A DNA stretch of 32,000 nt, taken from NCBI GenBank assembly GCA_021498095.1, contig JAIZWK010000001.1, positions 630,001 through 662,000 on the forward strand. Direction: 5' to 3'. Every line of letters begins with the position of its first letter. Positions within the stretch are counted from its first letter, which is position 1. Below the pieces are notes generated by a model that searched no databases, was not told the DNA's origin, and saw nothing but the letters and a program-made list of their open reading frames with translations. The translations under genes were made by a program, and so were the position numbers. Shown one piece after another: positions 5,153 through 15,806 of the stretch. The DNA comes from Candidatus Harpocratesius repetitus (GTDB lineage: Archaea > Asgardarchaeota > Lokiarchaeia > Sigyniarchaeales > Promethearchaeaceae).

Positions 5153-6358
5153 TTAACCTGGCATATCTTGAATAAGATGAATTGCAAAATTGAAGATATC
5201 AGTTGAATTTAATTCTACAAATCTGGCTTGAATATTTTTGTTTACATAATTACTTGCTGAAAAGACTGTAATAAATTTGTCATCAAAGTCTCGATGAAAC
5301 CCTTCTGAAAACACTTGATGGCCTCTGAAAACCAAATCTATATGATTTTTCACACAAAAAGTCCGAAAAATTTCCTCACCAAATGTATATCCAATCCCAC
5401 GGCGATTATCAAAAAATTGCTCAGAAACACCTGGAACATAATTTATAATGGGATCATTCCACAAGATTTGTTGAGATACTGGGTCCATTTCATCAATCCA
5501 AACTTGTCGATTGTTAAAATTATATATATTTAAGAGCGGTACATCATAATCTCCAGTTTTTGGATCAATTGTAATAGGAATCCCCCCATGAAGACAAAGA
5601 AAACTGCCATTTTCGCAATGAAAAATTGAAATCAAAGGCAAATCTTTAAACATATGGCAAAAAGAAGCAAATAATATTTCTGAAAAATATTTCATAACAC
5701 GTCTTCCAAATCCATAATTTGCAGAAATAGACATTTCTTCATGATTTCCACGTAAGATAAGCACATTTGTGGGATATTTTAAGTTAAATGTCATTAAGTA
5801 GAGTAAATTATGTAAGTCCCATTTTCCTCTGTCAACAATATCTCCAATTATGATTATTTTAACATCATAACCGAGTTGCTTACCTTTTTCAATTGCTGGG
5901 ACAAAAAAATTAATTAATTTTGCAACATCTGCAAATGAACCATGAGTATCACCAACAATGAAAAATTTTGCAGGTCGTTTTCGAGTATTTTTAGTTGATT
6001 TATAGGATTTCTGAATAATTGGCACAGGAAAAGATAAAGGATAAATTTTTTCTAAATAAAAATCTTGAAACTGTCGAATTAAAATTGTCATCTTTAATTC
6101 AGATGCATCCCCTCCGTAGTATTCTGAATCATTAGGTGGATTCTCAGATGAAAATTGGCGATAATAATCCCAAAACTCTTCAACTATGGATTGTTCTTCA
6201 GTTTCCCCAATACGCTGAGTTCTACCTTCCATAATCATTTGGGTTTGGGTTTTTTCAATTGACATGAATGTAGATTGCAAGCTTGTGTAATATTTCTGTC
6301 CAATCTTTTGTGTCCGCTCATTATATTCATTTTCTTCTTGAAATTCATCAGAGTTCAT
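5153..6358 (-). CDS. PPP-family Ser/Thr protein phosphatase with N-terminal extension
   Basis: GDTHG, GDIVDRG, RGNHEE, HGG, LWNDP, RGHQ and FSASNY motifs. ATG at 6358 is preceded by a GAGGG SD-like motif (ORF track starts at TTG 6364). Confidence 0.92.
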   Translation of the reverse strand: MNSDEFQEENEYNERTQKIGQKYYTSLQSTFMSIEKTQTQMIMEGRTQRIGETEEQSIVEEFWDYYRQFSSENPPNDSEYYGGDASELKMTILIRQFQDFYLEKIYPLSFPVPIIQKSYKSTKNTRKRPAKFFIVGDTHGSFADVAKLINFFVPAIEKGKQLGYDVKIIIIGDIVDRGKWDLHNLLYLMTFNLKYPTNVLILRGNHEEMSISANYGFGRRVMKYFSEILFASFCHMFKDLPLISIFHCENGSFLCLHGGIPITIDPKTGDYDVPLLNIYNFNNRQVWIDEMDPVSQQILWNDPIINYVPGVSEQFFDNRRGIGYTFGEEIFRTFCVKNHIDLVFRGHQVFSEGFHRDFDDKFITVFSASNYVNKNIQARFVELNSTDIFNFAIHLIQDMPG

Positions 6359-6401
6359 TTTCAAACCCTCGTTTGGTTTTCAATTAATATCGTTATTTTT
6401 T

Positions 6402-7523
6402 TTAATTATATGATTGAAATTCAGAAAATTCCAAGTTTAATCCATCTTCAGATATACTGATAATTTTAGGTGGTTTTCCATATTCTAATTTCAATATTTT
6501 TGGAGAAAATTGAATTCTTCCATCATAGGATGCAGTACTGAATAAAGAATATAAACGACTGTTGAAAAATGCTTTCCATCCATCGGGCCATTTCTGATGA
6601 CCTCTAACAAGAAGATCAAGATTATTTGCAGACATAAATGCATTAAAAACATCTATTCCAAATTGTAATCTTCCATTAAAATGATCTCCAGTTAAAATCC
6701 CTTTTTGAATCATTTCATCCGGATCAGACCATAACATTGAAACAGAAAGGGGATCCATTAAACTACTTTCTGGTTTATCACATTCCAATTTTGATTCAAT
6801 TTCACTAAGGATTAAAGGTTCCATAAAATGATAAGGATCAATAGGGATTCCACCATGAACGGTTAATACACGTGCAATTTGGGAACCAGAGTGTATTTGA
6901 CTTATATGAGCAATGGGAAGGTGAGTAAAGAATTGAATTATTTCTTCGTAGAGTTCTTCACCTTTTTCCCAAAATGCACGAAGTAGATTATCAATAAATC
7001 CGTAATGTTCGTTTATTTTTCTATCTTCATGGTTTCCTCGAATTAAGACAACTTTCCCTGGACATAAAAGAGAAAAAGCGACGATTAATGTAAGGTTTTC
7101 TAAATCATATGGATTTCGATCAACATAATCCCCAACAAAGATAAGTTTGCTTTCGGGAATTTTCTGAATCAATTTATAGAAAAATTCGATTATTAAGTAT
7201 GATTCATGAATTGCTCCATGAGTATCTCCAACAAAATAGGTTGGGCCATAAATATCATCCGTAACTATTTTTTTTGCTAGTGTGGGAATAAGACGATTAA
7301 CTTCTTGATAAAATCTTAGATATTTTTCAAAAGAGAGGGGATTTTGAGTAAAATTAAAACCATCTAAGCAACATTGAACTAAATGGTCGAAAACTTCCCG
7401 AATAATCGGATTGATTGTTATATTTTTTTTTTTCAATGAAGAAAATTGTTGTTCAGATAACTGGTGATATTTATTTGTCTCGAGTGCAAAGAAATTTTTC
7501 TTAATTAGTGTAAATTCTTCCAT
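6402..7523 (-). CDS. PPP-family Ser/Thr protein phosphatase (second paralog)
   Basis: GDTHG, GDYVDRN, RGNHED, HGG, LWSDP, RGHQ and FSTASY. Metal ligands and the catalytic His are retained. Confidence 0.92.
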   Translation of the reverse strand: MEEFTLIKKNFFALETNKYHQLSEQQFSSLKKKNITINPIIREVFDHLVQCCLDGFNFTQNPLSFEKYLRFYQEVNRLIPTLAKKIVTDDIYGPTYFVGDTHGAIHESYLIIEFFYKLIQKIPESKLIFVGDYVDRNPYDLENLTLIVAFSLLCPGKVVLIRGNHEDRKINEHYGFIDNLLRAFWEKGEELYEEIIQFFTHLPIAHISQIHSGSQIARVLTVHGGIPIDPYHFMEPLILSEIESKLECDKPESSLMDPLSVSMLWSDPDEMIQKGILTGDHFNGRLQFGIDVFNAFMSANNLDLLVRGHQKWPDGWKAFFNSRLYSLFSTASYDGRIQFSPKILKLEYGKPPKIISISEDGLNLEFSEFQSYN

Positions 7524-14561: not shown

Positions 14562-14648
14562 AATTATAACCTCAATAATGTAATAATATTAAGTAAAGTA
14601 TTTCTCTACCATATTGGAGATGAAATACTCTTAAAAAATTTCGGCATT

Positions 14649-15806
14649 TTAAGATATTTTTTTTGTTTCATCGCCCTGAATACGTTGTGTCGCTTGAGCA
14701 TCTCCACGAATTGTGCAATCGGCGATTTCTTCAGCTTGCGAGAAGACATTCGCATATTTTTTGTTAATATCTTGATTTAATTTAAATTTTGATGAATCAT
14801 TAGAAAATTGAATTTTAATATCTTTTGAATCAGTTAGACCTTCACCAAAATCGAACTCCAAGCGAAGTAAATTGGTAGGGACATCTAATTGAATTTTATT
14901 AGGAGAAATTATTACTTTCCCTTTAATAAGGATTTGGTAGGTATCTCCTGCTTCAAAACTACGTAAATAAGTCTGAAATTCTGTTTTTGAAACTTTTTTA
15001 AAAGGCATTCTAATAACTGTGGGTTTATATTGAGCTGCATCATCTAATTGCAATTCTTGGTGATAGCTTTTAATTATAATTTGAGGTTGGCTGAATGCAA
15101 TACGAACAGTTTGTTCTGTAGCAATAATCATTTTGGTTTTCATTTCTTCTTCGCTTTCCGCGAAGATATATTTACCTGTAGAACGCTTTGCTAGTTCGTA
15201 CATTAAATATACATTATGATCTCCTAAAGCACCCACAGTGTCAATTGATGATTTATATTCAAGTGCTTCCTTCGCTAACAGAAAATACTTATTATAATTA
15301 GGATCATTCTCATTGCCACTTTCTAATTCTACATCAGTAGGATCACCATCGCTAAGAAGGAAGATTTTCTTGATTTTAAGAGAATTATCACTTTTTACAT
15401 ATTTCTTCATTAATTCTATTGCCTTTTTCAAAGCAGAATAAAGTGCTGTAGTTCCTCTGTCGCTGATTTTTTGTATCTCATCAATTATTTTTTTCCTAGA
15501 GTTGTCTGTAATTCGTTCATTTGTTATAATTTCATGAATATTTGTCTCGAAAGTAATAAGTGTGAAAATTGTTCCTTCAGGTAATATATTTATCTGCTCA
15601 ATTAAGGACTGTTTTGCATTATCTAATGGTTTTCCAGACATGCTTCCTGAAATATCTAAAAGCCAAATGCCATAAAACGCTTCAGGAGGAATATTTTTAT
15701 CTGGAAGAACCTTGATATCCAATGCAATTGGCACTTCATTATTTGATGGAATAGGAATACAAATTGCAGATTGTAAAATATTTATATATGGTTGTTTTTT
15801 TGACAT
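14649..15806 (-). CDS. von Willebrand factor A (vWA) domain protein
   Basis: MIDAS DISGSMS, GTTALYSAL, LLSDGDPT and later TVGALG. Followed by a beta-rich C-terminal domain and a short tail ending TQRIQGDETKKIS. Confidence 0.92.
   Translation of the reverse strand: MSKKQPYINILQSAICIPIPSNNEVPIALDIKVLPDKNIPPEAFYGIWLLDISGSMSGKPLDNAKQSLIEQINILPEGTIFTLITFETNIHEIITNERITDNSRKKIIDEIQKISDRGTTALYSALKKAIELMKKYVKSDNSLKIKKIFLLSDGDPTDVELESGNENDPNYNKYFLLAKEALEYKSSIDTVGALGDHNVYLMYELAKRSTGKYIFAESEEEMKTKMIIATEQTVRIAFSQPQIIIKSYHQELQLDDAAQYKPTVIRMPFKKVSKTEFQTYLRSFEAGDTYQILIKGKVIISPNKIQLDVPTNLLRLEFDFGEGLTDSKDIKIQFSNDSSKFKLNQDINKKYANVFSQAEEIADCTIRGDAQATQRIQGDETKKIS

Follow-up and report, generated by a model that had tools for sequence, protein, structure and literature searches.

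A nine-gene phospho-signalling locus of Candidatus Harpocratesius repetitus, probably an expanded ArnA/ArnB-type phosphothreonine switch

What kind of system is encoded by nine genes, packed onto one strand of an Asgard archaeal genome, that together specify a vWA protein, four Zn-ribbon proteins, a protein kinase and three protein phosphatases? The genes were analysed in a 32,000-nucleotide stretch of the genome of Candidatus Harpocratesius repetitus, of the class Lokiarchaeia or Promethearchaeia (contig JAIZWK010000001.1, positions 630,001 to 662,000), hereafter the window, in which nine co-directional open reading frames (ORFs) fill positions 5153-15806 on the minus strand, with intergenic gaps of 12-87 nt when the kinase is started at 9741. 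The kinase ORF extends to a TTG at 9768; database orthologues begin at the ATG at 9741, giving a protein of 443 residues. GGAGG- or GAGG-like ribosome-binding motifs are found upstream of several of the nine genes. No Ter, ESCRT or Vps4 family was detected by Pfam among the window ORFs, and the sole P-loop NTPase of the window is an AAA18 gene that flanks the block and lies outside it. An initial annotation of this DNA had described nine contiguous minus-strand genes with gaps below 90 nt and Shine-Dalgarno-like motifs, a kinase at 8410-9741 and a cluster devoid of ATPase, ESCRT and Ter genes, all of which was confirmed; its further statement that the cluster matched no recognised system was not upheld, as the vWA protein and the first Zn-ribbon protein are homologous to ArnB and ArnA and bacterial cassettes of similar content have also been described. 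The locus is probably an expanded, self-contained ArnA/ArnB-type phosphothreonine (pThr) switch. The kind of system is already known, namely a vWA-FHA switch of the ArnA/ArnB type with a kinase and phosphatases. The novelty lies in the architecture: a single block unites three extra Zn-ribbon adaptors whose FHA domains decay, a PpkA-like kinase that bears an FHA domain, a PP2C and two PPP-family phosphatases.

The vWA gene (14649-15806; minus strand, as for all nine) encodes a 385-residue ArnB-like protein, referred to below as the hub, with a Pfam VWA match at 5e-12. In a single-sequence search of the PDB the best match was chain A of 8S05, the ArnA-ArnB complex (4.9e-15). A profile of ten homologues matched ArnB (8s05_A) at 4.4e-25, generic vWA proteins at ~1e-14 and vWA2 (5a8j) at 2e-10. 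An AlphaFold2 (AF2) model of the hub with a predicted local distance difference test (pLDDT) score of 90.8 comprised strands at residues 7-34, a vWA domain at 45-234, a split beta-sandwich at 236-334, helices at 345-377 and a flexible tail. Foldseek returned full-length matches of this model to 4fx5 (template modelling (TM) score 0.74) and 8s05_A/B (TM 0.66 over 388 columns) and a TM of 0.60 to the ArnB paralogue 5a8j; Sec23 and Sec24 chains followed behind 4fx5, ArnB and vWA2 with TM ~0.5 and E ~1e-11 to 1e-12. In a weak hidden Markov model (HMM) stretch, hub residues 341-376 were aligned with residues 314-350 of ArnB. [quoted passage not shown] The conserved hub tail ends in TQRIQGDETKKIS, and G378, E380 and T381 of its IQGDET segment are invariant even in Hermodarchaeota paralogues of 25% identity. 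Three candidate phosphosites, T365, T373 (TQRI) and T381 (ETKKI), are conserved.

The gene for the ArnA-like adaptor, ZnFHA (13719-14561, 280 residues), lies 87 nt downstream of the vWA gene, and its product gave a Pfam FHA match at 2.2e-9 together with weak Zn-ribbon matches. In the orthologue alignment the N-terminal Zn ribbon (C6, C9, C20, C23) and the GR, ISR..H and STNGT motifs of the C-terminal FHA domain were conserved, and the best PDB sequence matches were to ArnA (5a8i_A, 3.4e-5; 8s05_C, 1.3e-4). Because the best PDB sequence matches of both proteins are to ArnB and ArnA and the hub model matches ArnB over its full length, the vWA protein and ZnFHA are an ArnB/ArnA homologue pair. 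The ZnFHA linker of ~130 residues (window 14124-14393) holds seven to nine SPFPP-like repeats, kept in six of six orthologues with variable spacers; conservation of this kind, unlike plain disorder, suggests a role in docking or Ser-Pro phosphorylation. A second ArnB-like vWA paralogue, 55% identical to the hub and with the same IQGDETKKIS tail, is encoded at G000:C1:2815071-2816222 and is also present in the cultured P. syntrophicum MK-D1 and Candidatus Lokiarchaeum ossiferum, the latter having a third copy of 39% identity. This 2.815-Mb locus was considered as a second cluster and rejected on account of its unrelated neighbours (an MGMT-like DNA-binding protein, an acyltransferase and a major facilitator superfamily (MFS) transporter).

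In Sulfolobus, ArnA is tethered weakly to ArnB by its Zn finger, ArnC phosphorylates Thr residues in the C-terminal helical bundle of ArnB, the FHA domain of ArnA then binds phosphorylated ArnB tightly, and both proteins are contacted by PP2A, an enzyme of the PPP family; the Hanks kinases ArnC and ArnD and the phosphatase PP2A belong to the archaellum regulatory network of Sulfolobus acidocaldarius / Saccharolobus (PMC6509490, PMC7472852, PMC12852372). The present locus shares with this system the neighbouring genes for a Zn-ribbon-linker-FHA protein and a ~385-residue vWA/beta-sandwich/helical MIDAS protein, a Hanks kinase with a PPP phosphatase, and a second vWA paralogue (ArnE there, the 2.815-Mb copy here). 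Unlike in Sulfolobus, the kinase, the PP2C and two PPPs are encoded within the block, three extra Zn-ribbon proteins carry divergent or degenerate FHA domains, the kinase itself bears an FHA domain, the adaptor linker holds conserved SPFPP repeats, the helical C-terminal part of the hub is shorter and the genome has no archaellin gene.

The three extra Zn-ribbon proteins are ZnC (12353-13663, 436 residues, Pfam CpXC 6e-7/Zn ribbon), ZnD (10688-12331, 547 residues) and ZnE (9756-10631, 291 residues), the last two with no Pfam family. Even at E<=10 Pfam FHA matched neither the C-terminal regions of ZnC, ZnD and ZnE nor that of the kinase, and HMM profiles of the three cryptic C-termini gave nothing meaningful against PDB sequences. 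Orthologue alignments of each C-terminus were then compared by hhalign with a profile of 23 Asgard FHA domains. ZnC scored 95% (E 3.6e-8, 115 columns), the kinase tail 92.8% (E 4e-7, 111 columns) and ZnD 88% (E 3.1e-6, 110 columns); ZnE scored 1.3% (E 0.04, 99 columns), at which sequence homology was not detected, and the controls (vWA C-terminus and PP2C) scored 0.4-0.5%. With six ZnFHA orthologues alone the matches were weak (2.8-41%), becoming clear only with the broader Asgard profile. Region-restricted homologue searches with the kinase and ZnC tails returned no protein with a recognised FHA domain, the matches appearing to be orthologues or fragments. None was returned either by a ZnD-tail profile run against 1.84 billion representatives, which found 23 proteins, the longer ones of ZnD length with a C-terminal match and the others short. 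A feature search of the ESM Atlas, all of whose matches are weak leads, placed the ZnD tail in an FHA cluster (0.88) and the ZnD N-terminus among generic Zn ribbons, and gave no match for the ZnC N-terminus.

In ZnC, Zn ribbons of the CpXC type at the N-terminus precede a long helical region and a second CxxC pair; the C-terminus is a divergent FHA domain that keeps the Arg of GR, the Ser (ISNKQF) and GT, with G36, R37, S65 and G91 invariant. In ZnD, three or more Zn ribbons at the N-terminus are followed by a helical region, a linker that is acidic and disordered and, at the C-terminus, a degenerate FHA-like domain in which G[KR] is kept and the Ser and NGT are lost. The kinase tail keeps GR, ITR and NSNPT. 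ZnE has three Zn sites (12 invariant Cys) followed by an FHA-fold domain at residues 170-291. The ZnE model was built with AF2 from 13 homologues (pLDDT 83.2); when residues 170-291 were compared with 48,161 chains using VIA-align, FHA domains led the matches (Chk2 FHA, Z 8.8, rmsd 2.7, 97 residues; ArnA FHA, Z 7.1), and the top 29 Foldseek rows were all FHA domains. ZnE lacks the canonical pThr-binding residues, having no GR, SxxH or NGT, and by its model is probably an FHA fold that is unlikely to read pThr. A complex prediction for the vWA protein with ZnE scored 0.00, which is evidence neither way. Along the row the pThr-binding residues decay, most being retained in ZnFHA, ZnC and the kinase tail, only G[KR] in ZnD and none in ZnE. 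All five FHA or FHA-like C-termini named in the initial annotation thus have support: Pfam recognises one, profile-profile comparison three (88-95%) and the predicted fold one.

The kinase (8410-9741, Hanks-type Ser/Thr, 443 residues, Pfam Pkinase 1.2e-24) has GxGxxG, VAIK, HRD, the catalytic-loop Asn and APE; its HRDFTFNN loop is without Lys and DWG replaces DFG. Its C-lobe is near-identical across genera in the alignment. The best PDB match was PpkA, the kinase of the type VI secretion system (T6SS), at 1.8e-11, whose HRDISLDN loop is also without Lys, and the loop of the Hermodarchaeota kinase reads HRDLSPRN. As the Lys-less loop recurs in both, it is a trait of the subfamily and no sign of inactivity. 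The PP2C-type Ser/Thr phosphatase (7536-8369, 277 residues, Pfam PP2C_2 2e-11 and PP2C 5e-11) has intact GDSR, SDGL and DN motifs and matched the NCBIfam Stp1/IreP PP2C model at 2.4e-30, below that family's cut-off. The two PPP-family phosphatases are PPP1 (6402-7523, 373 residues, Pfam Metallophos 2.8e-18) and PPP2 (5153-6364, 403 residues, Metallophos 5.6e-27). PPP2 has all PPP motifs (GDxHG, GDxVDRG, GNHE, HGG, RGH) and matched the catalytic subunits of eukaryotic PP2A, PP5 and PP1 at ~1e-29. PPP1, a paralogue of PPP2 (~1e-34), has GDTHG, GDYVDRN (the Gly of GDxVDRG being replaced by Asn) and GNHE, with the other PPP motifs intact. By these motifs the two phosphoesterases are genuine members of the PPP family. 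PPP2 has a conserved extension at its N-terminus (~130 residues), which contains three T-x-x-[IL] motifs, two of which are T-x-[KR]-I-G, and these are kept in seven orthologues with the first motif altered in one. The Thr motifs of the hub tail and of PPP2 are plausible sites for the kinase and the FHA domains, with Ile or Leu at pT+3.

By analogy with ArnAB (PMC12852372), a switch of the following kind is proposed. In the basal state the Zn ribbons would hold the adaptors weakly on the hub. The kinase would phosphorylate Thr residues in the C-terminal helices and tail of the hub (T365, T373, T381) and probably also the T-x-x-[IL] motifs that PPP2 carries in its N-terminal extension. Those FHA domains that are competent for pThr binding, in ZnFHA, ZnC and the kinase itself, would then clamp on the phosphorylated sites, converting a loose complex into a tight one and releasing or masking surfaces for downstream partners. 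ZnD and ZnE, having lost pThr-binding residues, could act as phospho-independent competitors or scaffolds. The switch would be reset by the PP2C and the two PPPs, of which PPP2 is perhaps recruited through its own phosphorylated motifs, providing negative feedback.

Whether the nine genes behave as a unit was assessed from their distribution. All nine were found in the same order in five further genomes (G002, G001, G010, which is L. ossiferum, G011, which is MK-D1, and G008), and seven of the nine in G006 and G007, on two incomplete contigs each. The order spans at least four Promethearchaeia genera, both cultured organisms included. A search with ZnD detected homologues in 7 of the 13 other genomes of the same family but in 0 of 47 from other families of the order. 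The flanking genes are also syntenic within the group, so that synteny alone is weak evidence. In genomes without the cluster, AAA18 is followed directly by TGT; this was seen within the same family in genus g3 (G009 and the 91% complete G004) and in the outgroup families f3 (G019, G021) and f2 (G014), usually with DUF371 and TYW2 next. Searches of G004 for vWA, FHA and kinase matches were negative at the thresholds used. The nine genes of the window, together with a variable Hexapep gene, sit exactly between AAA18 (16441-17055) and TGT (TGT-DUF371-TYW2 lying within 1774-5059). Since these two are adjacent in every outgroup examined, the genes were gained or lost as one block, the borders of which coincide with the coordinates given in the initial annotation. 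The gene-neighbourhood comparison put forward in the initial annotation therefore found the genes conserved together rather than scattered, and its reading of the locus as a self-contained writer/reader/eraser pThr module held, the order being kept in at least four genera and the genes being present or absent as a block.

Relative to MK-D1 and L. ossiferum the vWA protein is 69-70% identical and the kinase 72-74%, compared with ~63% for the flanking TGT. The extra adaptors evolve fast (35-45% identity to the same two organisms). Among 5.8 billion proteins ZnE had 13 homologues, the named ones all from Promethearchaeia or Lokiarchaeum; searches with ZnC and ZnD yielded short pieces and proteins of comparable length and nothing else, and the named matches were again all from Promethearchaeia or Lokiarchaeum. 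A phylum-wide search of 301 genomes with the vWA protein located related core operons in other Asgard lineages. One, in Hermodarchaeota, has the order vWA-vWA-ZnFHA-kinase-PP2C followed by a second Zn-ribbon kinase, and its first kinase aligns with the present kinase over residues 25-434, tail motif included. In a further Asgard family the order is ZnFHA-vWA-(Zn ribbon..PP2C)-kinase, and the kinase has a Pfam-recognised FHA domain. These operons resemble the present one in uniting a vWA protein, a Zn-ribbon-FHA protein, a kinase-FHA protein and a PP2C, and in Hermodarchaeota a tandem vWA pair stands upstream of the Zn-FHA gene. They differ in having no PPPs and no ZnC, ZnD or ZnE, in identities of 25-32%, and in the presence of a second Zn-ribbon kinase in one and of a long Zn-ribbon-PP2C fusion in another. 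The core is ancient, and its expansion is specific to the lineage.

The T6SS threonine-phosphorylation pathway is composed of PpkA, PppA and Fha1. Bacterial operons for vWA, Ser/Thr kinase, FHA and PP2C proteins have also been described, e.g. Deinococcus radiodurans DRA0331-0334 (bioRxiv 10.64898/2026.01.23.701218). The same four domain types occur in these cassettes and the T6SS pathway as in the present locus, and PpkA shares the Lys-less HRDx[ST]xxN loop. The present locus differs in that it has no T6SS context, its vWA domain is not fused to the kinase and its FHA proteins carry Zn ribbons; the bacterial systems in turn are without a PPP pair and degenerate-FHA paralogues.

The output of the switch is not that of Sulfolobus. 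No Arch_flagellin (PF01917) match was obtained in the closed 4.36-Mb genome, while control genomes did match, and a Pfam scan of the window ORFs detected no motility genes. In the absence of an archaellin the output must differ, and archaellum repression is excluded. Three other Pfam-FHA proteins of the ArnA-like FHA subtype are encoded in the genome (a second Zn-ribbon-FHA protein, an FHA-Peptidase_M50 fusion and a 388-residue protein) and are candidate downstream readers. Roles in stress, conflict or cell shape are speculation. The fusion, of 466 residues, joins an ArnA-subtype FHA domain to Peptidase_M50 (site-2 protease) and is encoded at G000:C1:1152273-1153673; FHA proteins of the same subtype with 448-476 residues recur across the family. 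This protein may be one of the kinase's outputs, an intramembrane protease gated by pThr. FHA (PF00498) matches came from 10 of the family's 13 genomes and from 0 of 12 genomes searched in the three remaining families of the order, many of these >95% complete, so that within the order FHA signalling appears to be confined to one family.

Several observations weigh against an expanded ArnA/ArnB-type switch. The helical part at the hub C-terminus consists of two helices (345-377), compared with the four-helix regulatory helical bundle (RHB, ArnB_C) of ArnB and its extended, Thr-rich alpha8-alpha9 pair, and no Pfam family was detected in hub residues 225-385 at E<=10. Intergenic T-runs follow the vWA gene (T6) and the ZnFHA gene (T8) and may divide transcription into sub-units; the seven distal genes are spaced by 12-56 nt with GGAGG-like sites and without a T-run. 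The pattern T[QKR][KR][IL][GQ] had 27 matches in 3286 ORFs, PPP2 being the sole protein with two, and as the motif T-x-[KR]-I-[GQ] was defined post hoc its rarity in the proteome is no independent test. We infer all of the binding and phosphorylation steps of the switch. Finally, the three other Pfam-FHA proteins and several other kinases in the genome mean that targets may lie outside the cluster.

This last point leads to the rival that survives best, that of a general Ser/Thr signalling centre in which the kinase and three phosphatases mainly target proteins encoded elsewhere, e.g. the FHA-Peptidase_M50 fusion and the other FHA proteins, and the vWA and Zn-ribbon proteins are accessory scaffolds. 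The recurrence across the family of the three further ArnA-like-subtype FHA proteins is in keeping with it, as are the many substrates of Sulfolobus PP2A and Arn kinases (PMC7472852, PMC5007285) and the action of ArnA as a global regulator in S. islandicus (PMC10470591). It is nevertheless unlikely: no other genes of the block are as well conserved as those for the vWA hub and the kinase, which are also found together with Zn-FHA and PP2C genes in distant Asgard lineages, and the hub tail keeps an invariant Thr. It also overlaps with the expanded ArnA/ArnB-type switch and is compatible with it.

Triads of vWA, PP2C and kinase genes are linked to stress and defence, and the locus might accordingly be a TerY-P-type conflict or defence system acquired as a mobile island, given that the nine-gene block is inserted in an otherwise conserved row of tRNA-modification genes and the kinase domain matches the defence-associated kinase models mad6 and PD-T4-6 at ~1e-28. 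Those matches are generic to kinase domains, and eight of the nine proteins had no PADLOC match. The window contains no Ter gene, integrase, transposase or nuclease, and the GC content of the block is similar to that of its flanks. Unlike fast-turnover defence islands, the block has a fixed locus and unchanged content in all genomes found to carry it, and evolution has been slower in its core proteins than in the housekeeping neighbour. The TerY-P triad also has a co-located vWA protein, PP2C and Hanks kinase; the present locus is distinguished from it by an ArnB-type vWA protein with beta-sandwich and helical tail, by FHA readers and PPPs, and by having no Ter gene. An origin as a defence island is accordingly quite improbable.

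A role in membrane or cargo handling was considered in view of the structural matches of the hub to Sec23 and Sec24 chains given above. The ArnB-type hub and Zn-ribbon adaptors would then be a phospho-regulated assembly on a Sec23/24-core-like scaffold, a prokaryotic relative of the COPII inner-coat core. PDB entry 8S05 is titled as an archaeal ortholog of the Sec23/24 core motif, the vWA/beta-sandwich/helical/Zn-finger arrangement is common to both (PMC12852372), and gelsolin-less Asgard Sec23-like proteins have been proposed as coat precursors (PMC11914678). Bacterial 4fx5, crenarchaeal ArnB and vWA2 all match the hub better than Sec23/24 does, and the Pfam scan of the window ORFs, three of which had no or weak matches, gave neither a membrane-trafficking nor a small-GTPase family, so that this reading is very doubtful. 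Equally little credence is given to the operon as a phosphorylation-gated adaptor-exchange machine built on this scaffold for membrane or cargo organisation in Lokiarchaeia, with four alternative Zn-ribbon adaptors, one kinase and three erasers.

An expanded ArnA/ArnB-type switch would be of interest as there has been hardly any study of Ser/Thr phospho-signalling in Asgard archaea, and here a single block supplies an ArnB-type hub with one writer, as many as five readers of FHA fold and three erasers. Both cultured Lokiarchaeia (MK-D1 and L. ossiferum) carry the block, which makes its wiring directly testable, and as the organism has no archaellum it may reveal what such switches do beyond motility. 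It also illustrates how the ArnA/ArnB core of Asgard archaea, Sulfolobales and bacteria can be elaborated, with FHA adaptors being duplicated and decaying. A speculative evolutionary angle comes from the structural resemblance between the hub and the Sec23/24 core; if true, a prokaryotic relative of the COPII inner-coat core would be present in the archaeal lineage closest to eukaryotes.

The flanks of the block are on the same strand. Downstream are the genes for archaeosine TGT, DUF371 and a Trm5/TYW2 methyltransferase, and upstream are Hexapep, the AAA18 nucleotide-kinase-like gene and a conserved 508-residue ORF of no known family. The AAA18-archaeosine TGT-DUF371-Trm5/TYW2 row, probably a tRNA-modification operon, is conserved in genomes examined from three families of the order and is split here by the nine-gene insertion. 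Hexapep (15884-16420) was considered as a member of the unit and rejected as it is missing from the L. ossiferum and G008 versions. Adjoining the 508-residue ORF upstream of the cluster is a gene on the plus strand (18815-20158) for a 447-residue protein of TPR-type repeats which, with no single significant stretch, showed weak similarity to the MIT domain over the whole protein (E 2.6e-7).

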